A stretch of 50,728 nt of DNA from Anaerohalosphaeraceae bacterium (GCA_050309605.1 JBNRMN010000053.1:1-50728), one strand, 5' to 3'. Positions 38,531 to 50,728 are shown, numbered from the stretch's first letter. Made by a program: numbers and translations. Notes: generated by a model from the letters alone, not told the origin.

Positions 38531-40462
38531 TTACTTATCCCATGTCAAATCCTCTGTTTTATCGGCAATCTTTGCCGCGGCGATTGATAAAAATCGCTCT
38601 GAAGAGACCTCGACGGTCTGTTGAGATTGCCTGAAACGGACATTCACTACATCATTTTGAGCCTCTTTTGGTCCGACCACCAGCATATACGGCACGCGGT
38701 CGGCGTGGGCGCGGGCGATCTTGGCGCCGATTTTGTCGCCGCTCATATCCGCCAAGCCCCTCAGGCCGGCGGCCCGGCATCGGGACAACAGCGACCGGGC
38801 GTAAGCATCGGTTTTTTCACTGATGGTCAGGATACGCACCTGTTCCGGCGCCAGCCACAGCGGGAAATTGCCCGCGTAATGCTCAATCAATATGCCCATA
38901 AACCGCTCCAGCGAGCCGAGAATGGCCCGGTGAATCATCACCGGCGTCTTTTCGGTATTATCCGGTGCGGTATAGGTCAATTCAAACCGCTCAGGCATCG
39001 AAAAGTCAAGCTGAATCGTGCCCAACTGCCACGACCGCCCCAGACAGTCTTTAATATGAAAATCAATCTTCGGCCCGTAGAACGCCCCGTCGCCCTCGTT
39101 GATCTGGTAATCAAGGGCCTTGTGATCCAGCGCCCCTTTCAGCGCGGCGGTGGCAATGTCCCAAACGTCGTCGGACCCGATGTGTTTTTCCGGTTTGGTC
39201 GAAAGTTCGATGCGGTAGTCCGTAAAGCCGAAGGCCGCGTACATTTCTTCGATCAGATTGATCACGCCGATGATCTCCGGCTCAATCTGTTCGGGCATAC
39301 AAAAGATATGGGCATCGTCCTGGGTGAACTGCCGCACCCGCACCAGGCCGTGCATCTGGCCGCTGGCCTCGTAGCGATGGACCAGCCCCAGCTCGGCGAT
39401 CCGCATCGGAAACTCGCGATAGGAGTGCTTGGTGGAATTATAGACCAGCAGCCCGCCGGGACAGTTCATCGGCTTGACGGCATAGGTGGTCTCGTCCACC
39501 GTGGTAAAATACATATTTTCTTTGTAATTGTCCCAATGGCCGCTGCGGTGCCAGAGCGACTCGTTAAGGATAATCGGGGTCTTGATCTCAACATAGCCGT
39601 ATTTGGCGTGAACCTGCCGCCAAAAGTCGATGATCGCGTTCCAGACAATCATTCCTTTGGGGTGCAGGAACGCAAAGCCCGGCCCTTCCTCGTGGAAGCT
39701 GAACAAATCCATCTGCTTGCCGATGAGGCGGTGGTCGCGTTTTTTGGCTTCTTCGAGGCGGTGCAGGTACTCGGCCAGTTCCTTTTTGTTCCGCCAGCAG
39801 GTGCCATAGACGCGCTGGAGCATTTTTTGTGAGGCGTCGCCGTGCCAGTACGCCCCGGCTACGCTCATAATCTTAAACGCCTTGGGGTCGATGCTGCCGG
39901 TGCGGGGGATGTGCGGGCCGCGGCACAGGTCTTCAAAACCGTTTTGCCCGTGGCGGTAAAAGCTGATCGTCTCGCTGTCGGCGCGTTGGATGTTGTCCAG
40001 CTTGTAGGGGTCGTGGGCCATTTTGGCCGCGGCCTGGTCGCGAGCCATCTCCACACGAACGAACGGCTCGTCGGCGGCGATAATCTCGCGCATTTTCGCC
40101 TCAATCCGTTCGAAATCCTCCGGGCGAATCGGGGACTCCAGGTCGATGTCGTAATAAAAGCCGTCCTCGACCGTCGGGCCATAGACCAGCAACGCCTGCG
40201 GCCAGAGCGAACAGATCGCCTCGGCCATGATGTGGGCGCAGCTATGGCGAAGGATGTCAAGCCCTTTGTCGTCTTTGGCCGTGATGACGACCAGTTTGGC
40301 GTGATTATATACAGGAGCCGACAAGTCCACAAGCCGACCGTCCAATTCGGCCGCCACCGCCGCCCTGGCCAGTCCCGACCCAATTTGCTGTACAAAATCC
40401 AGCACACTCGCCCCGTCGGCGCCCTCAAGGATACTTCCGTCAGGAAGCTCTATTTTTGCCAT
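38531..40462 (-). CDS. thrS: Threonine-tRNA ligase
   Basis: TGS domain, RHSCAHIMA, DLCRGPH, RDHR, KPMNCP, RVRQFTQDDAH, GAFYGPKID, HRAILGSLERF. Confidence 0.98.
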   Translation of the reverse strand: MAKIELPDGSILEGADGASVLDFVQQIGSGLARAAVAAELDGRLVDLSAPVYNHAKLVVITAKDDKGLDILRHSCAHIMAEAICSLWPQALLVYGPTVEDGFYYDIDLESPIRPEDFERIEAKMREIIAADEPFVRVEMARDQAAAKMAHDPYKLDNIQRADSETISFYRHGQNGFEDLCRGPHIPRTGSIDPKAFKIMSVAGAYWHGDASQKMLQRVYGTCWRNKKELAEYLHRLEEAKKRDHRLIGKQMDLFSFHEEGPGFAFLHPKGMIVWNAIIDFWRQVHAKYGYVEIKTPIILNESLWHRSGHWDNYKENMYFTTVDETTYAVKPMNCPGGLLVYNSTKHSYREFPMRIAELGLVHRYEASGQMHGLVRVRQFTQDDAHIFCMPEQIEPEIIGVINLIEEMYAAFGFTDYRIELSTKPEKHIGSDDVWDIATAALKGALDHKALDYQINEGDGAFYGPKIDFHIKDCLGRSWQLGTIQLDFSMPERFELTYTAPDNTEKTPVMIHRAILGSLERFMGILIEHYAGNFPLWLAPEQVRILTISEKTDAYARSLLSRCRAAGLRGLADMSGDKIGAKIARAHADRVPYMLVVGPKEAQNDVVNVRFRQSQQTVEVSSERFLSIAAAKIADKTEDLTWDK

Positions 40463-40583
40463 AAACCGTTACCTGCTGTGTAAATATCAACAAAGATTAC
40501 CAAAAACGGCAGTATATCCGCAGGTCGGTTCAAAAGTCAAGCCTGAAAAGGATTTCGCACACTCGCCCTGCCGTTCAGGCTTG
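40436..40583. repeat. 148 bp direct repeat, copy 1 (thrS promoter, leader and codons 1-9)
   Basis: 141/148 identical by manual alignment to 41765-41912. Confidence 0.95.
40511..40540 (-). promoter_or_regulatory. Sigma70-like thrS promoter (second copy at 41840-41869)
   Basis: TTGACT-N18-TATACT, identical in both copies of the duplicated segment. Confidence 0.7.
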
Positions 40584-40599
40584 GCCTGTTTCTGCCTAA

Positions 40600-40676
40600 A
40601 TTACCCATTCTCCATTCTAAATTCTCCATTCTAAATCCTGCATTCTTAATTCTGCATTCTTAATTCTGCATTCCTC
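40600..40676. repeat. Heptamer tandem tract (ATTCTNN x ~11)
   Basis: attaccc attctcc attctaa attctcc attctaa atcctgc attctta attctgc attctta attctgc attcctc. Confidence 0.9.
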
Positions 40677-40759
40677 CCCTTGGCCCGTAAAATCGGAAAA
40701 TTTCCACCCACAACAGGAAATCGAAAAATAGGAAATTGGAAATCATCACCTATTGCTCG

Positions 40760-40855
40760 CGCACCCACAAGCTCCGCTTGAAGATGCCACCCGGTTTCAA
40801 TTGAATCGTGTTGATTGCCGATTGATTATTGCCAATCTTGCTGTGGCTGCCCGTC
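40760..40855. repeat. 96 bp REP-like unit, copy 1
   Basis: 81/96 identical to 41671-41766; imperfect hairpin gcacccacaagc-tcc-gcttgaagatgc followed by cacccg, plus internal heptamers. Confidence 0.85.
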
Positions 40856-40929
40856 GCACTTTTACCCTTTTCCTTTTACCTTTTGACTTGATTGTACTGC
40901 TCCCCCTGGCCTGTAAAAAATGTATGGGA

Positions 40930-41451
40930 TTAGTTACTGGGCTTGATGATATTCCAAATATTCATAATATCTGTTCCAGTGATCTCTGGTAACAACAGAT
41001 TGCCCTCTTTTTTCAAAGGTAAAGTAAGAGTACCTCCGACCGGTGCATCAACTGAAAGCCCAACACCTGCTTTATAAGGGATTGATGTTCCGGGTTTGAC
41101 ATTCTTCAAGGACTTGAACAACTCAAGGTAGTTGACGTTGACAGGCAAGGAAACCGTTTCTTTGCTGTTTGCTGCGATAGAACGCTGCACGTTGGCATCC
41201 CCCTTAAGAAATGTATCCGCCCCGCTTGAGAGATGATAACTCAAATTGGTAAGAGGTAATGACACGGCATACGGGTTATGGATTTCAACATCAAACAGAA
41301 GCTGTGCAGAATGCAAACTGACATCTCCAAATTGAATATTCTTAACCTGTGCACTTGGCCTGCTTAAACCCAGATTTTGCAGGGTTTCACACCCATTGCA
41401 AATCAGCCCTAATAACACGGCTGTTAAGACAACCAGTTTTGCTGTATCCAT
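40930..41451 (-). CDS. LEA type 2 / WHy-domain lipoprotein
   Basis: Lipobox LICNGC; LLFDVEIHNPYAVSLPL..LSYHL, a LEA_2 signature; visibly AT-richer than neighbours; GGGAG RBS before MDTAKL. Confidence 0.82.
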   Translation of the reverse strand: MDTAKLVVLTAVLLGLICNGCETLQNLGLSRPSAQVKNIQFGDVSLHSAQLLFDVEIHNPYAVSLPLTNLSYHLSSGADTFLKGDANVQRSIAANSKETVSLPVNVNYLELFKSLKNVKPGTSIPYKAGVGLSVDAPVGGTLTLPLKKEGNLLLPEITGTDIMNIWNIIKPSN

Positions 41452-41600
41452 ACTATTTCTCCCGAAAACTTTAAACAAGGACAGTTTTTACATCCAATAG
41501 AAATAAAAGGGACCTTTGGCCATCAACTCTTTGCCTTAATTTCGTTTATTCCTTTTGTCGCTTTGACTTTCTCATCAAAAAGGTGTCTGTCCCCTTAAAT

Positions 41601-41663
41601 TGTTCTCATTCTTAATTCTGAATCCTTCAATCGTCCGTCATCAATCGAAAATCGTCAATCGAA
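41601..41663. repeat. Heptamer tandem tract
   Basis: tgttctc attctta attctga atccttc aatcgtc cgtcatc aatcgaa aatcgtc aatcgaa. Confidence 0.8.
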
Positions 41664-41670
41664 TCCCCCC

Positions 41671-41766
41671 CGCACCCACAAGCTTCGCTTGAAGGTGCCA
41701 CCCGTTCTCAATTGACAATGGATTATTGCCGATTGATTATTGCCAATCTTGCAGAGGCCACCCGTC
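41671..41766. repeat. 96 bp REP-like unit, copy 2
   Basis: Hairpin gcacc-ca-caagc-ttc-gcttg-aa-ggtgc plus cacccg; it abuts the duplicated thrS fragment. Confidence 0.85.
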
Positions 41767-41912
41767 CGTCAGGAAGCTCTATTTTTGCCATAAACCGTTA
41801 CCTGCTGTGTAAATATCAACAAAGATTACCAAAAACAGCAGTATATCCGCAGGTCGGTTCAAAAGTCAAGCCTGAAAAGGATTTCGCCCGCTCGCCACTC
41901 CGTTCAGACTTG
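41765..41912 (-). repeat. 148 bp direct repeat, copy 2 (thrS promoter plus truncated thrS 5' fragment MAKIELPDG)
   Basis: Matches 40436-40583. The reading frame continues into the REP-like unit as MAKIELPDGRVASARLAIINRQ* (41723-41791). Confidence 0.95.
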
Positions 41913-42090
41913 AGATACGCCGGGGCGCGGATCACCCATTGGCCCAAAAGCCGGCCACGCTCACTGGAGCAATAAACAATGCCCGTCGTTAATCTGTCAA
42001 AAACTGTGAACGGTTACGATGATTTTAATATCCTGGCAAGTCAGTGGATAATAATCTATAATGCCAACAGTGATTGATTGGGGTATTTTT

Positions 42091-45000
42091 ATGAAAAAAG
42101 CAAGGCTTGGTTTGTTTTTTTGGGGTATGCTCTGGTCGTCCGGAGTGCACGTGTTCGGTACCGCATTGTCTGCCGAAGCAGGTACGCCGCAACCATCGGC
42201 GGCCATGGCGGCTGACTCCGCCTCGGCCTCAAGTTCCCCGGCGCCCCTTCCCGCCCGCTGGGGCGACTGGCAGGCCTGGGGCGATATGGGGGACGGGACG
42301 TACCGTAATCCGATCCTGCCGTCGGACTACAGCGACCTGGACTGTATCCGTGTCGGGGAGGACTACTATGCGATCTCCTCCACGATGCAGTTCTCTCCCG
42401 GAATGATCCTCCTGCATTCCAAAGACCTGGTCAACTGGACCCTTATTGGTCACGCGGTGGCCGATGTAACCCGGATTGGGCCTGAGATGAATTGGGATCG
42501 GATGAATCGCTATGGCCGGGGCGTATGGGCCGGCGCTATTCGTTACGCCCATGGCCGGTTCTGGGTTGTGTTCGGAGCGCCGGACGAGGGATTCTTTATT
42601 ACCAGCGCAGAAGATCCTGCCGGCCCGTGGGAGCCTCTGGGTCCGCTGATGCTGGAACGAGGGTGGGATGATTGCTGTATCTTTTGGGATGATGACGGTC
42701 AGGCCTACTTTATCGGGACGCATTTTGCCGACGGGTACAAGACCTATATTTGGCAGATGACACCCGACGGCCGGTCTCTTATTGAAGATTCGCGTACGCT
42801 GATTAACCAGGGGGCCGGTCGCGAAGCCAACAAACTCTACAAGATCAACGGCTGGTACTACCACTTCTTCAGCGAGGTGTCGCAGGGGGCGCGGGTGGTG
42901 ATGATGCAGCGATCCCGTTCCATCATGGGGCCATACACACAGCGACGGCAGCTGACCGACCGCAACCGGGAGTGGAACGAACCCAATCAGGGCGGTATCG
43001 TGGATACCCCGTCGGGTGAATGGTATTTTGTTACCCACCACGGCACCGGTGACTGGGAAGGCCGCTGTATGAGCCTGCTGCCGGTGACGTGGATTGACGA
43101 CTGGCCGATTTTGGGGGCGACGGAGAACGGAGAACCGGGAACGATGGTGTTTGGCGGCAAGAAACCGATCCAGGGGCATCCGGTGGTGACGCCGCAGAGC
43201 AGCGACGATTTCAGCGCGTCCGTGCTCGGCCCGCAATGGGAATGGAATCACCACCCGCGCGCCGACAAGTGGTCGCTGACCGAGCGTCCGGGCTATCTGC
43301 GTCTTCGAGCATTTAAACCGCGGCGGCCCGATGATCTCATGACGGCCGGCAATACGCTCACCCAGCGTTCCTTCCGAACACGTAAGAATGTGGTTATTGC
43401 AAAATTTGATCTGTCGGGGATGGCGGACGGCCAGAAGGCGGGGCTTTGTCACTTTGCAAAAGACCACTCGGCTTTGGGCGTAGCACAGGAAGGGTCTGTT
43501 CGCCGGATTGAGTTTCGCGAAAACGGGAATCTGACCAAAGGGCCTGTGGTCGAGCAAAACCTGCTCTGGATACGGTCGTCATGGGGGCTGGATGGAAAAA
43601 GCCAATACGCCTACAGTCTCGACGGTGACACGTTCGTGCCCTTCGGCAGCGTTTATCAACTCTCATGGGGCCATTACCGGGGGGATCGCATCGGGCTTTA
43701 CTGTTTCAACATCAGAGAAGATGCCGGATACGTGGATATCGATTTCCTGCATTACGATTATCGTTCGACGTCAGATGCCGCCGTGGCGCGCGTTGATGCT
43801 GTCAACGGGGCCATGCTCGGCTCGTGGAATACGCAGGTGGAGTTTGACTCGATCAACGTTGTCTGCGGAAGCGAGGTGGTTCTGGATGACCCGTTTGATA
43901 CTGAACAGCCCGGCTGGCAGCGCAGCCAGGGACAGTGGCAGGTTTCAGGCGGACTTTGTCGGCAGATTTCACATGCGACACCGGCATTAATGACCTACGC
44001 TTTCCAGAGCCAGGCGGCGGATTACACCATCTCTGTTCGCGCCAGGAAAACCGGCGGTTCTGAAGGTTTTTTCATCGGTTTCGGTGTTCAGAATCCGGAG
44101 AATTATTATTGGCTGAATCTTGGCGGATGGAACAACACCGCTCACCGTCTTGAAAAAACCGAATACGGGTATCGCCAGCCAATCGGGCCTGCGGTTTCGG
44201 GTCGCATTGAAACCGGACGCTGGTATGATATACGGATTCGCGTGGAGGGTCGCCGTATTCAATGCTTTTTGGATGACCAGCGAATTTTTGATGTGACGGA
44301 TATCGGTTTTGCCGGGGATTCGGACGCATTGCCCGCTGACAATGACAGGTTGAACTTCGGACATGCCCTGATCCCGGATCTGGTTGCCGATCCAAGCATT
44401 GTGGATATTGATGGTACGTTCTACTGCTATGCTACCACGGATGGCTGGGGGCAGGGGTTGACTACCTCCGGAACGCCAGTGGTTTGGACGTCAAAGGACT
44501 TTCTTAACTGGAGTTTCGAAGGCTCCAGTTTTCCTTCGGATTTCGATTTGAAGTACTGGGCTCCCAGCAGTATTGTCCCCCACAACGGCCGGTACTTTTC
44601 TTTTGCCACACTGGACGGCAAGATTACCGCCGTTGTGGCCGATTCGCCGACGGGACCATTCCTTGCACCTGACGGCACACACGTCACCAGGGCAACGCTC
44701 CAGCCGTATCCGATTGAGCAAAAAAGCTCCATTGACGCGGAAGTTTTCATAGACGACGACGGACAGGCCTACATGGTTTGGTCCCGCCGTCGCATGGTGA
44801 AACTCAAGCCGGATCTGCTGTCGCCTGATGGATCCGTCATTAACCTCCCGACAAAACGCGACGGATATTCCGAAGGGCCGTTTCTCGCGAAGCGCAACGG
44901 TATCTACTACTATTTCTACACCCTGGGCGGCGATGAGGCTTACCAATACGCCTATATGATGAGTCGCACCTCGCCGCTGGGGCCGTGGGAAGCGCCCGAA

Positions 45001-45657
45001 CAGGACATCATCGCGACGACCGACCATGAGAGCAGAGTCTTCGGGCCGGGACACGGCTGTTTCTTCAGCCCTCAAGACAGCGATCAGTGGTATTTCGTCT
45101 ATCTCGAATACGGTCGCGGCGGCACGAACCGTCAAATTTACGCCGATAAGATGAATTTTAACCCCGACGGTACCATTGTGCCCATCACATTGACCAAGAC
45201 CGGCGTAGGGGCGTTGCGGCCGGTTGTGGATTCGTCGCCGAACCTGGCATTGAACTGCAAGGTCACGGCGTCCTCGACCCGCCGGAATTATCGCGTTCGC
45301 CCGAGAAAGGACGCCAGCCTTGATCGCGTGGAAACCTACGTGCCTGCGAATGCGGTTGACGGATACAACGGTACCCGCTGGCTCGCCGCTCCCGGGGATG
45401 CTGCGGCTTGGTTTCAAGTGGACCTTGGCGAGCCGCACGCTATCCGCCGCACCGAGGTGTATTTCGTGAAGCCCGCCGCCGGCCATGCTTATCGCCTTGA
45501 GTGGTCGCTCGACGGCCAAACTTGGAAACCCTATGGCGGGCACGACGAAGTCATCCTTCGCTCCCCGCACCGGGACGAAAAGCCGGCCCGAGCCCGGTAT
45601 TTGAAACTGACCATTTTGGAAGGCGAATCCGGAATCTGGCAATTCCGGGTTTACTGA
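42091..45657 (+). CDS. Multimodular GH43 enzyme: GH43, beta-sandwich, ConA/DUF1080-like domain, second GH43, F5/8 (CBM32-like)
   Basis: YRNPILPSDYSDLD...SKDLVNW, WAG, QWEWNH; second propeller ADPSI...WAP...IDAEVF...SEGP...GPGHG; C-terminal NAVDG...WFQVDLG; signal peptide MKKARLG. Confidence 0.9.
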   Translation: MKKARLGLFFWGMLWSSGVHVFGTALSAEAGTPQPSAAMAADSASASSSPAPLPARWGDWQAWGDMGDGTYRNPILPSDYSDLDCIRVGEDYYAISSTMQFSPGMILLHSKDLVNWTLIGHAVADVTRIGPEMNWDRMNRYGRGVWAGAIRYAHGRFWVVFGAPDEGFFITSAEDPAGPWEPLGPLMLERGWDDCCIFWDDDGQAYFIGTHFADGYKTYIWQMTPDGRSLIEDSRTLINQGAGREANKLYKINGWYYHFFSEVSQGARVVMMQRSRSIMGPYTQRRQLTDRNREWNEPNQGGIVDTPSGEWYFVTHHGTGDWEGRCMSLLPVTWIDDWPILGATENGEPGTMVFGGKKPIQGHPVVTPQSSDDFSASVLGPQWEWNHHPRADKWSLTERPGYLRLRAFKPRRPDDLMTAGNTLTQRSFRTRKNVVIAKFDLSGMADGQKAGLCHFAKDHSALGVAQEGSVRRIEFRENGNLTKGPVVEQNLLWIRSSWGLDGKSQYAYSLDGDTFVPFGSVYQLSWGHYRGDRIGLYCFNIREDAGYVDIDFLHYDYRSTSDAAVARVDAVNGAMLGSWNTQVEFDSINVVCGSEVVLDDPFDTEQPGWQRSQGQWQVSGGLCRQISHATPALMTYAFQSQAADYTISVRARKTGGSEGFFIGFGVQNPENYYWLNLGGWNNTAHRLEKTEYGYRQPIGPAVSGRIETGRWYDIRIRVEGRRIQCFLDDQRIFDVTDIGFAGDSDALPADNDRLNFGHALIPDLVADPSIVDIDGTFYCYATTDGWGQGLTTSGTPVVWTSKDFLNWSFEGSSFPSDFDLKYWAPSSIVPHNGRYFSFATLDGKITAVVADSPTGPFLAPDGTHVTRATLQPYPIEQKSSIDAEVFIDDDGQAYMVWSRRRMVKLKPDLLSPDGSVINLPTKRDGYSEGPFLAKRNGIYYYFYTLGGDEAYQYAYMMSRTSPLGPWEAPEQDIIATTDHESRVFGPGHGCFFSPQDSDQWYFVYLEYGRGGTNRQIYADKMNFNPDGTIVPITLTKTGVGALRPVVDSSPNLALNCKVTASSTRRNYRVRPRKDASLDRVETYVPANAVDGYNGTRWLAAPGDAAAWFQVDLGEPHAIRRTEVYFVKPAAGHAYRLEWSLDGQTWKPYGGHDEVILRSPHRDEKPARARYLKLTILEGESGIWQFRVY

Positions 45658-45747
45658 CCTCTTCGCAGTTCCGGGCATATCGAATGAGTAAGTGATTTGT
45701 AAAGAACATAATATACGATTGTTAAAAAGGCTTTTAATTAGAGACCT

Positions 45748-48700
45748 ATGATTAAGTATGCAAATCAAATTAACAGAAGTTCTGGGTTCAAGGCGTTTGA
45801 ACTGCGAATCGGTATCCTTGCCGTTCTGGCTGTATTTGCAGCGGATCTTTTTGCCGCTGAAGGCCAGAGACCTGCCGTGCACAACTATGGTAAATCGGGC
45901 GATGATCCGGCCACAGAGGTTGATGAATCTGCGATACTGGCCAGCGATGATCTTTCAGAAAACAAGCAGTATCGGGAATCCATTAAATATGCACTGGTTG
46001 TCAATGACACTCCAGTTTCTGTTTATAAGTATCAGAAAGGCCCGATCGGCAGCGGGCACTATAATTTTGACATTGCGAGGTTCGCTTCGGAAGACCAGAC
46101 GCCGACGTTTGAAATCCAATTGAAGGACAATACAATCATCGAAACGGTTGAAATTTACCCGGAACGTTACTATCCGCAGGAAGCAGTGCGCATCAGCAGC
46201 AACAGAAAGACCTTGACCTTCAGCATGTCCGACAAATTGCGGTATTGCATCATCAATATCAATGGCACACTGACGGACAGGCGAATGGCGGGCACTCCCA
46301 TGCTGGCCGTCATCAACGACCCGCCGGAAACAGACAAACCGGATGTGAATGCTCACAATGTACTGAACTTCAGGGAGTTTGCCGCGCAATATTTAAAGGA
46401 AAACCCGATTACCGACCAGATCGGCCAAATATGTCGCCCCGCGGGATCGGTGACCGATACCAGCAGAAATACCCACGAGCAATTTACATGGCATTATGAA
46501 GCAGGCAAGTATGTTGACCAGAAGGAGAGAAATGTTCGATTTCCCAATAAGCGTGTCAGGGTCAAACACGATGTGTCCGAGGCGTTCCAGGCAGCGCTGG
46601 AGCACGTGAGAAAAAACCCTGAACTGGACACCATCTACTTTCCGGCGGGGACTTATATCTGGTCGGGTTTGTCGATCAGAAACTGGGACGGCAACGGGGC
46701 CGACGGCAAACTGAACATCTACCTGGACGAAGCGGCGCTGCTGGTCAATCGGCTTCAGGAATGCAAGGAGGCGATGGAACCGGCGATCGGGATCTGGTAT
46801 TCTTCGAATATCACCATTTCCGGCCGCGGCATTATTGACGGCAACGCCTGTTACACCCTCAGGCTGGATCGCAAGGATGCCCGCGATACGCCGCACCAGG
46901 GCGGGGCGATGGTGGTACACTCAGAGGACATCACATTCAACGACACCTATGTTCGCGATACCAAACAGTGGAACTGGGAGTGCCATACCGTTAAGCACGT
47001 TACCTTCAATAACATCAAGGGGCTTTCGCCTTTCGACCATGCCTGGGTGGATGGGCTGAATCTGACCAGTGGCCGGAATGTGACGGTCAACGGCGCCTTT
47101 ACCCTGGGCAATGACGACACCTTTGCCACGGGCCATTACAACCCCAGCGATGAATTTCCGCGTCGATTTCTGGATGAGCTGGACCGGGCGACGGGCGATG
47201 AAAAGGCCCGCATGGAGACCATAAAGAATGAAGTCTGCGCCGCCGCGGCGGTGTACAACAAAAACAGACTGAAATGGGACACGGATGACTCCGAACATAT
47301 TACCGTAAACGATGTGCTGGCCTGGAGCGGATTGGCCAACAATGTGCGCTTGGGCGCCAACATCCGCTGGAAGGGAGAACCCGGAAGCTTTACCAGCTAT
47401 AAACTCAAGAGCTACACATTTAACAATTTTAACTCTGTGATGCGCCGCTGTATGGATGCCATTAAGCTCCATGGCGGCTCCCACGGAAGCCCACCGGGAT
47501 ACGAAACGTTGATCTTCCGGAATTGTTCCTTTGCCGGCGCCGGAGGGAACAATGTCGTGGTTCCGACAAACACAAACAACTTCCGCATAGATACAGTGGT
47601 CATTGACAACTGCTGGTTTGAGGATCCGACACTGCCGTTCGTTTTCAGAGATGTGAAGAATCTTATCTTGAAAGACATCGTTGCGGGCGGTCAATTGGTG
47701 ACAGATATCAAACAGTTACCGATTACGCTTGAAACGATTGGCCAACTGACTTTTACCGCATACGACCGAGATTCGGCGCAGGCCAGGTTCGTGCATCCGG
47801 GGCTGCTGCTCAGCCAGCGCCAAATTGACTTAATCAAAGCAAAGGTCGCGGCCGGCGAACAACCATGGGCGGGCGGATATGAAACGCTGCGTCAAAATAA
47901 ACAGGCGATGCACAGCTACCCGGTTAACGGTCCTTACGCAACCGTGGGCAGGGGTCGCAATCCAGGGGATAACGTGTACAAACGGCAGTTCGATTCCGAC
48001 TGCAACGCGGCACACTACAATGCGTTGATGTGGGTTATTACCAATGACAAGCGGCATGCGGCAAAAGCTATGGAGATCCTGAACGGTTATGCGGCGACAC
48101 TGAAAGAGATTGTCGGGACTGATAAGATACTGATGGCCTCGCTCAACGGTGCGAAACTGCTTTATGCCGCAGAACTGTTAAGATACAGTGAGGCGGGATG
48201 GGGACCGAAGGATACGGCGCAATTTGAGACCATGATGCTGACCGTGTTTTATCCGGTCATCCGGGATTTTGCTCCGTTCGCCAACGGCAATTGGAGTACA
48301 GGCTGCGTGAAGACAATGATGGCCATCGGGGTATTCTGCAATGACAGGACACTCTTTGATCGCGCAATAGACTGGTATTATCACGGCACGGACAACGGAT
48401 CGCTGACCGGCTATATTATCAATGACGAGGGGCAGTCCCAGGAGAGCGGGCGGGACCAGGCACATGCGCAACTGGGTATTGCGCATCTGGCGGAGGCGTG
48501 CGAGATTGCGTTCAACCAGGGGCTTGATCTGTACGGGGCTGCGGACAATCGGCTGCTCAAAGGATTTGAGTATGCGGCAAAGTACAATCTGGGGCATACC
48601 GTGCCGTTTGTGCCATACCGGGATACCACGGGCAAGTATAATCACCAAGTCATTTCCGACGCTGCACGAGGCAGACTGTGGCCGGTTTACGAGATGGTGT

Positions 48701-48858
48701 ACCATCATTATCGCAACCGACGTGATATGGCATGCCCCTTTACGCAAGCGGCAGCTCAGGCCATACGGCCGGAGGGAGCGGGGCCGAATGCGGACTGCTG
48801 CGGGTTTGGAACGCTGCTGTTTTCACTGCCGGAGAAAGAGAACGGGAATGGCACATAA
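45748..48858 (+). CDS. Secreted fusion of a GH28/GH49-like right-handed beta-helix and an alginate-lyase-like (alpha/alpha toroid) domain
   Basis: IYFPAGTY, ISGRGIIDG, WVDG...GNDD in the N-terminal part; FVHPGLL, GNW, QESGRDQAHAQLG, NRLLKGFEYAAKYN in the C-terminal part. Confidence 0.75.
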   Translation: MIKYANQINRSSGFKAFELRIGILAVLAVFAADLFAAEGQRPAVHNYGKSGDDPATEVDESAILASDDLSENKQYRESIKYALVVNDTPVSVYKYQKGPIGSGHYNFDIARFASEDQTPTFEIQLKDNTIIETVEIYPERYYPQEAVRISSNRKTLTFSMSDKLRYCIININGTLTDRRMAGTPMLAVINDPPETDKPDVNAHNVLNFREFAAQYLKENPITDQIGQICRPAGSVTDTSRNTHEQFTWHYEAGKYVDQKERNVRFPNKRVRVKHDVSEAFQAALEHVRKNPELDTIYFPAGTYIWSGLSIRNWDGNGADGKLNIYLDEAALLVNRLQECKEAMEPAIGIWYSSNITISGRGIIDGNACYTLRLDRKDARDTPHQGGAMVVHSEDITFNDTYVRDTKQWNWECHTVKHVTFNNIKGLSPFDHAWVDGLNLTSGRNVTVNGAFTLGNDDTFATGHYNPSDEFPRRFLDELDRATGDEKARMETIKNEVCAAAAVYNKNRLKWDTDDSEHITVNDVLAWSGLANNVRLGANIRWKGEPGSFTSYKLKSYTFNNFNSVMRRCMDAIKLHGGSHGSPPGYETLIFRNCSFAGAGGNNVVVPTNTNNFRIDTVVIDNCWFEDPTLPFVFRDVKNLILKDIVAGGQLVTDIKQLPITLETIGQLTFTAYDRDSAQARFVHPGLLLSQRQIDLIKAKVAAGEQPWAGGYETLRQNKQAMHSYPVNGPYATVGRGRNPGDNVYKRQFDSDCNAAHYNALMWVITNDKRHAAKAMEILNGYAATLKEIVGTDKILMASLNGAKLLYAAELLRYSEAGWGPKDTAQFETMMLTVFYPVIRDFAPFANGNWSTGCVKTMMAIGVFCNDRTLFDRAIDWYYHGTDNGSLTGYIINDEGQSQESGRDQAHAQLGIAHLAEACEIAFNQGLDLYGAADNRLLKGFEYAAKYNLGHTVPFVPYRDTTGKYNHQVISDAARGRLWPVYEMVYHHYRNRRDMACPFTQAAAQAIRPEGAGPNADCCGFGTLLFSLPEKENGNGT

Positions 48859-49082
48859 AATTGGTGAATGTAAGCCGGTGATCCTTTTAATTCGTAAAGA
48901 AGAATCTCGATACGGAGATGTTATGTATCATACAATAACCCGTATCTGCCTTCGCGTTTTTTGCAGTACAGGGTCAACAGAGACAAAATGAGAATGGGTG
49001 TGTCGCTCTCATTTAACAAAACAGCAAGGGGCAAGGTATAATTGAAATAACGGTAATAGTCAAATGGGACTGGAGAAAAAAA

Positions 49083-50477
49083 ATGAACAAGTGGTTTGCG
49101 ATAGTTCTGTTACTGGGTCATTTCTCGTTGCCTTATGCCAATGCACAGCAGGCGAGTCGTCCGCAGCCGCCGGCGTTGGTGCCGGGCCCTGCTTATCTGC
49201 CGCCGGGCATGGTTTTCGGGGCTGCATTCAAAGACCGCATCCTGCCGATTCCTATCCACGAGGGTCTGGAAGAAGAAGGGATCTGGGGGGCCGACGGAGT
49301 CGTCCCTCGCGATATACACAACGGGATTGAAGACCCCAAATGGAGTTACTGGTGCATCTCCGGGTTTAAGGGCGCCGATAATCGCTATCATATGTATGCC
49401 TGCCGCTGGCCTGAAGACGACCCCCGCGGGCATAACGCCTGGCCCGCATCCGAAGTCGTTTACGCCACGGGCGATAAACCCACCGGCCCGTTCACCTATC
49501 AGTACACCATCGGCAAAGCTCATAATGCCGAAGTGGTCAAACTCAAAGACGGCACTTATGCCATTTTTCGTATCGGCGACACCTTTTATGTCGCCGACAA
49601 GCCTGAAGGTCCCTGGAAACTCTCTGACAGGAAGATCACTCTTGACCATAACGGCATGCGCGAAGAAAGGGTTGACAATCCCACCTTTACCTATCGCAAG
49701 GATGGCAGCCTGATCATGATCCCGCGTCACGGCGGCGTCTATCTCAGCCAGACCGGCGATCCGGAAGGCCCCTATAAAAAGGTTTGTGATCGCGCCTATC
49801 CGCCCGGTTACGAGGGCCGCTATAATCACCTCGAAGACCCCGTTGTCTGGCGAGGCCCCAGCCAGTATCATCTTATCGTTAATTATTGGCCCACCTGTCA
49901 GGCCGTTTATATGCGTTCTCTGGATGGTATTCATTGGGTTCACGAACCGGGGATTGCCTATGATACCAGTATCACCGCTTACGAAGACGGTACGCGCACG
50001 AACTGGTTCAAACTCGAACGGCCCAAAGTCCTGCTGGATGAACACGGCCGGGCCACCCATTTGCTGCTGGCGGCCATTGATGTGATCAAGAATGAAGACC
50101 GGGGCGGCGACAATCACAGTTCAAAGAGCAAATCCGTGCCCTTGGTCACCGAACGCCTGATCACCATCCTCAATGAGCAGCCTATCGGTCCGGAGACTCA
50201 TACCATCCGTCTGCGTGTCAAAGCCGAACCCGATTTCAACCCGCATACAGACATGGATATTAAATCGCTGCGGCTCGGCGCCTGGCAAGAAGTCAACTGG
50301 GGCCGCGGGGCCAAAGTGCAAAAGACAGTCAAACAGGGCGCCGATATGATTCTTGAATTTGATGCCAAAGGACACGGCATCATGGACGACAACATCGCCG
50401 CCAAACTGCTTGGCAAGACCTCCAAAGGCAGTCTGCTCTTCGGCTATGCCGTTCTGCCCGGTCAGCAACAGCTTTAG
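49083..50477 (+). CDS. Five-bladed beta-propeller glycoside hydrolase (GH43/62/32/68/117/130-like clan)
   Basis: Signal peptide; WSYWC..YHMYACRWPE, HN, EDPVVW, KLERPKV. Confidence 0.75.
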   Translation: MNKWFAIVLLLGHFSLPYANAQQASRPQPPALVPGPAYLPPGMVFGAAFKDRILPIPIHEGLEEEGIWGADGVVPRDIHNGIEDPKWSYWCISGFKGADNRYHMYACRWPEDDPRGHNAWPASEVVYATGDKPTGPFTYQYTIGKAHNAEVVKLKDGTYAIFRIGDTFYVADKPEGPWKLSDRKITLDHNGMREERVDNPTFTYRKDGSLIMIPRHGGVYLSQTGDPEGPYKKVCDRAYPPGYEGRYNHLEDPVVWRGPSQYHLIVNYWPTCQAVYMRSLDGIHWVHEPGIAYDTSITAYEDGTRTNWFKLERPKVLLDEHGRATHLLLAAIDVIKNEDRGGDNHSSKSKSVPLVTERLITILNEQPIGPETHTIRLRVKAEPDFNPHTDMDIKSLRLGAWQEVNWGRGAKVQKTVKQGADMILEFDAKGHGIMDDNIAAKLLGKTSKGSLLFGYAVLPGQQQL

Positions 50478-50728
50478 TAAGGCGGATATATGATCAAGAA
50501 CTGTCCCAAGCTCATGACGATAATGGCTGAAATAAACAATCAAGAATACCCACTTAACCGGAAAGGCATTTTATCCAATTCCTGCCAACCCAATATCCCT
50601 TCTTTTTAGCATTTCTTTAGCAATCCATGCGGGTCGGGGATTTTTTTCTGAACAGGTCGGACGATTGTAAAAAAAACGGCGTCATAAGTTTCGGTTAAAA
50701 CAAGAGTTGCCTGAAAGACTGAAAAAAA

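Follow-up and report, generated by a model that had tools for sequence, protein, structure and literature searches.

How did a second copy of the 5' end of thrS come to lie beyond an accessory gene in the genome of an Anaerohalosphaeraceae bacterium (G000)? In the window, the whole stretch of 50,728 nt that was analysed (contig C53), the threonyl-tRNA synthetase gene thrS (38531..40462, minus strand) is intact, encodes 643 aa with the Pfam domains tRNA-synt_2b, HGTP_anticodon, tRNA_SAD and TGS, and heads the gene row thrS-infC-rpmI-rplT-pheS, with IF3, L20 and PheS matches downstream. A repeat search confirmed the direct repeat that an earlier, sequence-only reading had described: 40436-40583 and 41765-41912 are 148 nt each, identical at 141/148 positions (95%) and 1329 nt apart from start to start, and BLAST found these two copies only in the whole genome. 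Because thrS spans 38531-40462, the proximal copy (D1L, minus strand) comprises codons 1-9 of the working gene (40436-40462) and 121 nt upstream, including the leader. Both copies contain the promoter-like site TTGACT-18-TATACT (10/12 matches), at 40540-40511 in D1L (-35 at 40540-40535, -10 at 40516-40511) and at 41869-41840 in the distal copy, D1R (-35 at 41869-41864, -10 at 41845-41840). D1R (minus strand) has kept this site and the leader intact, and its codons 1-9 are fused to REP sequence: as had also been reported, the copy terminates in ...CCT GAC GGA and continues into a REP unit, yielding a 22-codon chimeric ORF (MAKIELPDGRVASARLAIINRQ, then stop; 41723-41791). The join, ...CCTGACGGA/CGGGTGG..., lies 1-3 nt from the end of the REP unit, and the letters GA are common to both partners. 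We conclude that the inner copy drives thrS and that the outer copy forms the boundary against species-specific accessory DNA. The earlier proposal that the inner copy restored the thrS 5' end fits this insertion topology, in which the displaced copy sits at the outer boundary.

The GC content is 0.39-0.46 between the copies versus 0.55-0.62 in the flanks, and the insert amounts to ~1.2 kb with one gene. The heptamer tracts, two REP-like units and AT-rich gene for a putative LEA_2 lipoprotein on the thrS strand noted on first reading are all there. The low-GC LEA_2 gene (40930..41451, minus strand) encodes 173 aa from the ATG at 41451 (PF03168, E 4.6e-15), in a frame open from a TTG at 41478, and is the sole ORF of the cassette with a family match. 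The REP-like unit is ~96 nt long and occurs twice, at 40760-40855 and 41671-41766, with 84% identity. The outer unit (D3R, 41671..41766, plus strand) consists of a hairpin at 41672-41703 and a ~60-nt tail that reaches the distal-copy junction, and is orthologous to a unit of the sister species G006; beside it lie short repeat tracts (41607..41670) made of one 14-mer-like unit and about five TCAATCG, 61/64 identical in G006. The inner unit (D3L, ~40760-40855) belongs to a block (40592..40854) of 14-nt array, spacer and REP unit without counterpart in G006, which has 18 other bases at this position; this block is a separate indel. Its array (40607-40673) has a period of 14 nt, 4.8 copies and 92% matches, and weaker 7-nt tracts are also present. 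The repeat search of the window revealed no terminal inverted repeats at either end of the cassette.

Is the structure real? The assembly is a 97-contig draft and the 148-nt repeats exceed common k-mers, but we consider an artefact or a strain chimera, an alternative that the sequence-only reading had allowed for, to have practically no chance of being the explanation. We checked the junctions in Logan contigs from four runs of four studies. The outer junction (41912/41913) is bridged by contigs of runs X2 and X4, with 55 letters on one side and >1000 on the other, and the inner boundary (40583/40584) is bridged in X2, X4 and X9. At the REP/repeat junction (41765/41766), contigs of X2, X4 and X9 cross from the cassette by 29 letters, below the threshold of 31; this is the point where the first repeated 31-mer necessarily ends a unitig. 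All these matches are free of mismatches, in runs of different studies, and the sequences that meet at the junctions have no more than a few letters in common, which rules out a k-mer mis-join. More broadly, at least half of the sampled words were present in 12 of the 24 listed runs, and 20 rows, from 10 studies and with one possible source included, hold all or part of the stretch. Since independent runs reproduce the junctions, they are not an assembly artefact.

G006, whose ThrRS is 98% identical, has the order thrS, one repeat copy, same flank, LEA_2, same REP unit, at 93.5-94.4% identity; the outer flank of D1L (40584-40591 onward) is homologous to the G006 flank. Past the outer REP end, G006 continues into unrelated DNA and then a tRNA-Ser. 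Thus a low-GC block (REP, LEA_2, REP) lies directly upstream of thrS in both sister species, whereas two diverged versions of the thrS 5' end around this block, that is two 148-nt copies versus one, occur in this species only. The picture of a discrete cassette delimited by the repeats does not survive this comparison, as G006 has LEA_2, the inner flank and the outer REP unit together with one thrS 5' copy. Between D1L and D1R, 1/105 positions differ in the proximal part, from promoter to codon 9, and 6/43 in the distal part; the orthologous comparison of G000 with G006 gives 1/105 and 5/43. Neutral divergence is ~12-14% (89/643 thrS third positions; 18/155 in the region upstream of LEA_2). 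A recent in-place duplication is expected to be nearly identical throughout, and an old unconstrained relic to carry ~13 changes in 105 nt; the two copies match neither expectation and thus resemble alleles that have diverged, not a duplication made in place, whether fresh or decayed. Private differences within the 148 nt number four in D1L, three in D1R and two in G006; the three versions are about equally distant, and sequence alone gives the event no direction. The distal ~45 nt of the repeat have no counterpart upstream of thrS in G002, G003, G005 and G001, which argues that the source of the extra copy lies within this species cluster and is not a widely mobile element. A candidate recombination tract in the first 170 thrS codons was rejected: the raised divergence there is symmetric (18 versus 20 private changes, outgroup G002) and does not support a recombination reading. 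None of the genomes and runs covered shows the cassette-free parent allele, with accessory flank, one repeat copy and thrS; with the outer flank of G000, it was not found in six congeners, nor in the one other record that a 23-nt pattern of the repeat brought up from each of metagenome_contigs and genome_contigs.

The DNA past D1R is composite. A 46-nt segment (41913..41958) without match elsewhere in the genome or in six congeners is followed, 47 nt past D1R, by a solo 61-nt end of a multicopy insertion sequence (41959..42019, plus strand), full copies of which break the assembly at five contig ends; in X2 and X4, loose ends at 41959 continue into the IS body. This patchwork points to repeated rearrangement. 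A GH43-family glycoside hydrolase gene (42061..45657, plus strand) opens the accessory right-hand block, and 41913-50728 was not found in four of five congeners in each search (G006, G002 and G003 in both, G004 in one, G005 in the other). Genome-wide family searches for Phage_integrase (PF00589), Resolvase (PF00239) and Y1_Tnp gave no match on contig C53, and ten Phage_integrase matches and one Resolvase match elsewhere in the genome. The earlier statement that the insert has no integrase or transposase is therefore correct for the cassette and for the contig; a solo IS end does lie beyond the right copy. The upstream region of thrS is different in every congener examined, and LEA_2 stands there only in G000 and G006. 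The 14 upstream ORFs taken from 14 relatives, within 1.5 kb of flank, comprise eight HAD, one LpxR, one MBL and two T2SSE matches and two without match, and no recombinase. Nothing in these results indicates the mechanism targeting thrS that had been proposed. The usual upstream neighbour of thrS is a HAD hydrolase (8/14).

The REP-like units are genuine: they belong to a dispersed low-copy family that is served by a REP-associated tyrosine transposase (RAYT) encoded on another contig, a candidate trans-acting enzyme of the kind the earlier reading had suggested looking for, beside the recombinase matches above. The family comprises about a dozen units of ~100 nt (hairpin plus ~60-nt tail ending in a half-site), with BLAST and pattern matches on contigs C2, C23, C33, C71, C73 and C90, and also occurs as ordinary intergenic repeats. 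In an alignment of 14 copies from six genomes, 12 end in ...CCCGTCG, whereas D3R reads ...CCCGTC/CGTCAGG; the hairpin at thrS folds as predicted. The RAYT gene (C90:77567-78139, minus strand) scores 98.7 bits with NF047646 (cut-off 80) and 30.4 with PF01797 (cut-off 23). It is flanked, as in G006, by inverted 43-nt arms (C90:77499-77541 and 78150-78192, 97.7% identical), and the two 100-nt REP units on its sides are 100% identical, suggesting recent activity. To our knowledge, REPs neither carry genes nor leave long duplications. Known REP/REPIN-RAYT systems (PMC3116915, PMC3337134, PMC5581495, PMC3733652) likewise pair one RAYT gene, set between inverted repeat copies, with a family of palindromic repeats that are extragenic and differ in number between related genomes. 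Unlike them, the present family has low-copy units of ~100 nt, and the two units at thrS are not the inverted doublets of REPINs: they are direct-orientation singlets, 911 nt apart, with a single hairpin each.

The suggested search for other duplicated gene ends gave one further case: among 16 local repeat pairs inspected genome-wide, gene-end duplications occur only at thrS and comM. At comM (contig C71), a 61-nt repeat of the gene 3' end, 98% identical, surrounds a DUF4160/DUF2442 pair. Both states, with and without the insert, exist at this locus. Empty sites were found here in G002 and G004, and the ancestral downstream flank that these two genomes show is continuous with the outer comM copy. 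In G006 the cargo is present and the inner junction is the same; its divergence starts exactly where the outer copy of G000 begins. The comM join, ...caccat/ccagcc..., has ~2 letters in common and its junctions have no REP end; the thrS and comM cassettes have no end sequences in common, and a scan for direct repeats in seven loci of relatives gave no further REP-end/gene-fragment junction. Transposon target-site duplications are usually far shorter than 148 or 61 nt. Since the duplications measure 148 nt and 61 nt, their length is not fixed, and the pattern of short, fixed-length duplications with terminal repeats is absent, in line with the initial view that the 148 nt are not a target-site duplication.

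We tentatively explain the structure, at slightly less than an even chance, as a fixed insertion-duplication scar at the thrS 5' end, left by recombination of cassette-bearing and cassette-free alleles; on our best reading, a dedicated cassette-inserting system is not its source. The two versions of the thrS upstream region would have recombined in such a way that two allelic copies came to stand together. This could have happened by single-crossover (Campbell-type) integration of a circularised fragment, with the homologous crossover inside the common 148 nt and the circle closed by the REP-end join, or by homology-facilitated illegitimate recombination (HFIR) of a linear fragment, with the homologous anchor in flanking DNA and the illegitimate join made directly. 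The REP-end join would have used partners that have the letters GA in common and both carry a GACGG motif. This shared motif, already pointed out on first reading, is indeed present on both partners, but the join is not in its register and GACG is tandemly repeated. Either allele may have been the recipient. As in Campbell-type events and in HFIR (PMC3240628), a homologous segment has become a direct repeat around incoming DNA (148 nt at thrS, 61 nt at comM), homology underlies one junction and a couple of common letters the other (GA at thrS, ~2 at comM), and no element-encoded recombinase is needed. Such events are known mainly from laboratory constructs and transformation experiments, whereas here the parents would be natural alleles, of which the cassette-free one was never observed, and the illegitimate join is at a REP end. 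In favour of recombining alleles are the reproducible junctions, the cassette-bearing single-copy allele of G006, the allele-like divergence of the two copies, the lineage-specific homology, the same topology at comM, and the absence of a recombinase at hand on the contig or in the 14 upstream ORFs. Against them, random illegitimate joining leaves the 1-3 nt proximity to the canonical REP end unexplained; the coincidence of the G000 outer copy with the exact edge of G006 divergence at two loci could equally mean a site-specific process; and selection on the outer promoter, or gene conversion, could also account for proximal 105-nt stretches that are nearly identical.

Such a site-specific process could be an integrative element at the thrS 5' end, of which the locus would be a remnant or satellite that brought a replacement promoter and start. 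Its integrase would have been lost or act in trans, and G006 would later have lost the outer attachment copy. We judge this unlikely. The topology is as in the dusA-specific islands and prophages (Farrugia et al. 2015, PMC4482086), which insert into a protein-coding gene at its 5' end, keep it working through a new adjoining 5' end with the displaced original as outer boundary, and have putative -35/-10 sites before and after the insert. At thrS, too, a replacement 5' end adjoins the gene and a displaced original the outer boundary; comM shows a classic gene-3'-end duplication with its empty sites, both G006 cassettes stop exactly at the outer-copy edge, as expected of a reactive site, and integrase and resolvase genes exist elsewhere in the genome. 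By contrast with the islands, which have their own tyrosine integrase beside the site, tens of kb of DNA and 21-bp semi-conserved att repeats, the thrS insert is a 1.2-kb one-gene segment with no integrase inside it next to the attachment site or anywhere on C53, and its 148 nt of homology include lineage-specific non-coding DNA and the whole promoter. The 14 relatives give no sign, over 1.5 kb of flank, that related elements use the same target, their upstream ORFs being mostly HAD hydrolases (8/14). The cassette, moreover, is one gene plus REP units that are ordinary intergenic repeats elsewhere, and it has no end sequences in common with that of comM. Cis-mobilizable elements (CIMEs) are like the thrS cassette in carrying a small cargo between att-like direct repeats without a recombinase of their own, and they originate from integrative elements that use the same site and that also mobilise them; unlike in the CIME setting, the relatives examined yielded no integrative element at thrS.

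An origin in place is likewise unlikely. A break at the REP end would have been mended with thrS 5' sequence copied from close by (template switching), or a segmental duplication would have preceded a deletion, and the extra copy would be kept as a LEA_2 promoter or homogenised by gene conversion. The patchwork flank (46 unique nt and the 61-nt solo IS end), the variable thrS upstream region of the congeners and the two common letters at the junction, as in illegitimate repair, speak for such an origin. So do the outer promoter, leader and start, conserved like those of a working orthologue (1/105), and position 40508, which varies among runs (the single proximal D1L/D1R difference is absent from X9) and hints at conversion. 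Yet it takes two or three events, or else a single complex one, the contrast of 6/43 distal with 1/105 proximal differences demands selection or conversion on an outer leader and codons without obvious role, and comM, where the outer copy is continuous with ancestral flank, is left unexplained. The third possibility, which comes near the earlier reading and is very unlikely in our estimation, gives the active part to the RAYT, which would cleave single-stranded DNA where the REP unit ends and at a similar site in thrS codons 7-9 and join them, producing a circle or junction with cargo and gene start and placing cassettes by housekeeping genes without an integrase. A RAYT is present between inverted REP hairpins, its identical flanking units suggest recent activity, the join is 1-3 nt from the canonical family end (12/14 copies), GACGG occurs on the thrS partner and on the REP end, and REP ends adjoin variable low-GC DNA at several loci that differ between G000 and G006. 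On the other hand, the join is out of register with GACGG within tandem GACG, the REP end is preceded by G here and by C in the other copies examined, neither comM nor the seven loci of relatives provide another such junction, and we know of no long duplications left by the IS200/IS605-type transposase family. RAYTs are, moreover, described as single-copy, domesticated genes (PMC5581495). That RAYT-type REP ends act in this lineage as active joining points, and that small accessory genes are spliced there beside housekeeping genes without an integrase and with a copy of the gene's promoter and start, or of its end, is a long shot; if true, thrS and comM would both have arisen by a single cassette route, recombinase-free or RAYT-driven.

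By its geometry, capture of the thrS promoter by the LEA_2 cargo is plausible. The outer promoter is aimed, via the 22-codon ORF and the REP hairpin, into LEA_2 and may thus add to its transcription; LEA_2 of G006 has no outer promoter copy. Of 283 candidate homologues of the LEA_2 protein, 159 match at E <= 0.001; among the best 120 matches listed, those outside the query's own cluster are 49-77% identical. Among congeners, the protein of G006 is 95% identical, G003 (44%) and G001 (40%) have theirs elsewhere in the genome, and none was found in G002. In run X4, the 14-nt array between LEA_2 and thrS is one unit shorter.

The thrS gene (38531-40462, minus strand), first in its usual row thrS-infC-rpmI-rplT-pheS, lies in a genome of 3.4 Mb in 97 contigs, and its 5' end is duplicated around a small insert. 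A 148-nt direct repeat, 95% identical between its copies, occupies 40436-40583 (the proximal copy, D1L) and 41765-41912 (the distal copy, D1R), with a spacing of 1329 nt and no third copy in the whole genome. D1L, which is the working thrS promoter, contains codons 1-9 of thrS and 121 nt upstream, and a TTGACT-18-TATACT promoter-like site is found in both copies. D1R breaks off after ...CCT GAC GGA and runs into a repeat unit, forming a chimeric ORF of 22 codons. The two copies enclose a 14-nt-period array, two units of ~96 nt (40760-40855 and 41671-41766, 84% identical) and an LEA_2 gene on the same strand as thrS; this cassette has a GC content of 0.39-0.46, compared with 0.55-0.62 outside it and 0.545 genome-wide. 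No Rfam family matched 40300-42200 at E <= 1. The tandem array (40607-40673) differs in copy number among public sequencing runs, run X4 having one unit fewer, and similar tracts occur at other intergenic sites in this genome and its relatives.

Of the 24 public runs listed, 12 contained half or more of the words sampled from 39900-42600. All or part of this interval was found in 20 rows from 10 studies, including one row that is a possible source of the DNA; no RNA dataset was listed as containing it. Logan contigs from four runs, each from a different study, were aligned to 39500-43000. The outer junction (41912/41913) was bridged by runs X2 and X4, and the boundary at 40583/40584 by X2, X4 and X9. 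In these same three runs, 41765/41766 was crossed from the cassette side by only 29 letters, short of a 31-letter threshold, because a unitig must stop at the first 31-mer common to both copies. The copy-specific differences between D1L and D1R were identical in X2 and X4, indicating that the structure is fixed in populations of different studies. No contig joining the two copies was found among the joints listed for the four runs, which is uninformative since rare variants drop out of contigs; a long joint from 40035 to 42192 in X4 was disregarded, its short side being 27 letters at 85% likeness and prone to error. These data demonstrate that the duplicated thrS 5' end described from the sequence alone is real and reproducible.

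We then compared the locus with that of the sister species (G006), whose ThrRS is 98% identical and whose DNA is ~94.5% identical. Its sequence aligned with 40300-40591 at 93.5% and jumped to 40855-41766 at 94.4%, indicating an order of thrS, one 148-nt copy, the short flank found in the window, LEA_2 and an outer REP unit that is the one of the window and has the canonical end; the block 40592-40854 is missing, and the 148-nt sequence is present once. Past the REP end, the sister genome continues with ~500 nt of unrelated low-GC DNA and then a tRNA-Ser(gga). This tRNA was considered as an anchor for telling which arrangement is older and set aside, the DNA past its 3' end being different in every congener. 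On the window's side, the 8.8 kb beyond D1R (41913-50728), with a GH43 gene and an alginate-lyase-like gene, was absent from searches of G006 and of four other congeners (G002, G003, G004 and G005), which puts D1R precisely where a block also present in the sister species meets species-specific DNA. Among congeners, the GH43 gene was found only in G001, at 73-82% identity. A 23-nt pattern from the repeat retrieved only the sister species' contig and one metagenome contig of practically the same sequence. Likewise, a scan of genome contigs with the LEA_2 protein retrieved only G006, and in no other genome examined does LEA_2 lie upstream of thrS. Elsewhere in the genome, G003 and G001 encode LEA_2 proteins only 40-44% identical and G002 none, and many metagenomic ones are 50-77% identical, a distribution indicating that LEA_2 is an accessory gene acquired by the ancestor of the two sister species. 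Across the family, thrS is most often preceded by a HAD hydrolase, which accounts for 8 of the 14 upstream ORFs; no recombinase is among the 14. In G002, a tRNA-Leu lies 190 nt upstream of thrS, and the 7.5-kb upstream region corresponds to contig C90 of the genome under study.

The divergence of the two copies is uneven. In the 105 nt spanning the -35 site to codon 9, D1L and D1R have a single difference, and in the 43 nt further upstream they have 6; the corresponding counts for D1L and its G006 orthologue are 1/105 and 5/43. Presumably neutral sites are 12-14% different between the two species (thrS third positions, 89/643; the LEA_2 upstream region, 18/155; the outer REP unit, 10/96). A recent in-place duplication would give near-identity over the whole repeat, and an old unconstrained relic would, by arithmetic from the neutral rate, carry ~13 changes in 105 nt. 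The pattern fits either of two histories: homologous upstream regions diverged from one another in separate lineages, or the outer copy was subject to selection or gene conversion. With 4 private differences in D1L, 3 in D1R and 2 in G006, the direction cannot be read from the three versions. Position 40508 is the sole D1L/D1R difference between promoter and codon 9, and in run X9 the proximal copy has the distal copy's base there, which may be gene conversion or polymorphism. A recombination tract in thrS codons 1-170, where 35/170 third positions differ from G006 against 53/473 in the rest, was rejected: both lineages contribute about equally to the excess (18 vs 20 private changes), pointing to a regional rate and not to import. 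In LEA_2 (40930-41451), 165 of 173 third positions are conserved with G006, much above the 554 of 643 in thrS, even though divergence in the adjoining non-coding DNA is on a par with that of thrS third positions.

The ~96-nt unit, which combines a hairpin with a ~60-nt tail ending ...GAGGCCACCCGTCG, also occurs on contigs C2, C23, C33, C71, C73 and C90. C90 carries two 100-nt copies, 100% identical to each other, on either side of a small membrane-protein ORF and a 190-aa ORF; the latter is itself bracketed by inverted hairpins, and profile matches identify it as a REP-associated tyrosine transposase (RAYT). The REP-like units noticed from the sequence alone are thus genuine REPs, with a RAYT encoded in trans. 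This RAYT locus spans C90:76962-78478, its membrane-protein ORF encodes 127 aa, and a third copy of the REP tail (30 nt) sits 192 nt further on. Searches with the unit gave 12 matches in the genome under study, 4 in G002, 24 in G003 and 5 in G001, as well as 32 with the hairpin alone in a further family genome (G017); overall, 18 of the 41 family genomes contained a match of some kind at E <= 0.01. When 14 copies from six genomes were aligned, likeness stopped at a common base in 12 of them (...CCCGTCG). In the copy adjoining D1R the sequence is ...CCCGTC|CGTCAGG, which places the join to the thrS sequence at most 1-3 nt from the unit end. A GACGG motif had been proposed as common to the REP end and thrS; it is present on both partners, but the join is out of register with it.

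The thrS topology recurs at a second locus. There, on C71, comM (Mg_chelatase domains) ends at 39317 and is followed by a DUF4160/DUF2442 pair, a second version of the 3'-terminal 61 nt of comM (39872-39932, 98% identical), 50 nt, and a REP unit, the whole arrangement spanning C71:39256-40076. G002 and G004 display the empty site (comM, 50 nt, REP unit), and the DUF4160/DUF2442 cargo was found in none of G001 to G005. The inner comM copy ends with TAA and the outer one with TGA, as in G002 and G004. The sister genome has the cargo and the same inner junction, diverges within 1 base of the start of the outer copy, and after ~220 nt of unique sequence reaches an inverted REP unit and the RAYT gene. 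At thrS and comM alike, therefore, the bracketing copy is found in the genome under study, and the sister species carries this cargo too, as ordinary chromosomal sequence with another outer flank. The RAYT adjoining the comM cassette in G006 is the orthologue of that on C90, with a different small ORF beside it. A 12-nt CCGTC/GACGG palindrome (G006 L047:2690-2705) lies ~20 nt past the divergence point, and its pentamer is also present at the REP end and at thrS codons 8-9. The 9-mer GTCTGAACG, found both at the thrS repeat's outer edge and where the comM-side filler of G006 begins, was judged a chance match (35 occurrences in the genome, ~26 expected).

We conclude that the thrS structure is, most likely, a scar left by recombination. 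Scars of this general kind are known; this one has an unusual location, the promoter and start of an essential gene, and adjoins a REP end. At each locus, a cassette-bearing version and a cassette-free one would have recombined once, in an event with one homologous crossover and one illegitimate join, through Campbell-type integration of a circularized fragment or homology-facilitated illegitimate recombination. Such allelic recombination accounts jointly for the direct repeat, for a divergence resembling that of alleles, and for the end of G006 homology exactly at the edge of the outer copy. It calls for a cassette-free thrS allele, which was not found in six congeners or by the contig pattern search, and does not distinguish which parent was the recipient. 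The join at a REP end would then be a coincidence, or a hint that REP ends are break-prone.

Other routes to the same structure appear improbable to different degrees. Integrase-mediated integration at the thrS 5' end has the right topology, that of the dusA islands (PMC4482086), but is unlikely: the identity block is unusually long and lineage-specific, no related elements are found at thrS, and there is no integrase. Indeed, as the sequence-only reading held, the cassette has no recombinase, genome-wide family searches placing none of 10 Phage_integrase, 1 Resolvase and 2 Y1_Tnp matches on the window's contig. The sole mobile-element trace nearby is a solo 61-nt end of a multicopy IS (41959-42019), full copies of which terminate five contigs (C62, C75, C77, C88 and C93). 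An integron, considered on account of REP units bounding low-GC genes, showed no attC-like end motif by eye. We regard an in-place duplication or template switch as just as doubtful as an integrase; it matches the scarred outer flank (46 unique nt and the IS end), but the divergence pattern demands extra assumptions and comM does not fit. Joining mediated by the RAYT would account for the position of the join at a REP end, yet is the least probable of the three, since nothing at comM supports it and no further example was seen in 7 loci of relatives. As for the dedicated recombinase-free cassette mechanism proposed from the sequence, two loci of the same topology speak for it, but the evidence is thin and only one of them lies at a REP end.

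The D1R promoter-like site is intact, and the minus strand has no predicted terminator-like site between D1R and the LEA_2 start, so read-through from this predicted promoter into LEA_2 is plausible. G006 retains LEA_2 without the D1R promoter copy. If allelic recombination is the true origin, the locus would be a clean natural case in which it duplicated the promoter and start of an essential gene, leaving an accessory gene behind a spare housekeeping promoter; scars of this type mimic mobile-element attachment sites and can mislead island-finding tools. Were a bolder reading true, a domesticated REP transposase or single-crossover integration of small circles would be a general route by which single genes are added beside core genes, a testable mechanism for integrase-less cassettes bracketed by gene ends. 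Either way, two near-identical predicted promoters, one toward thrS and one toward LEA_2, make a simple experimental handle.

Among 89 local repeat pairs, 16 were individually inspected. The repeats on C48 (134 nt) and C34 (123 nt) were rejected as gene-end duplications, being copies of other dispersed repeat families, and ORF translations showed many of the remaining inspected pairs to be apparent YD/Rhs-type tip and immunity arrays or paralogous genes. At C34:205557-211171, a 5.4-kb low-GC sugar-modification cluster lies between two copies of another dispersed repeat of ~170 nt; in places it shares 96-98% identity with G002, against 85% in the flank, which suggests recent interspecies exchange. 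At C48:9972-11159, a 281-aa ORF, phage-antirepressor-like by eye, sits between two copies of a further dispersed repeat, and G002 has an empty intergenic site at this position. Apparent YD/Rhs-type C-terminal tip arrays with small low-GC genes were seen in ORF translations of C29, C46, C52, C82, C86 and C2, and on C46 the cassette boundaries carry REP-tail fragments.
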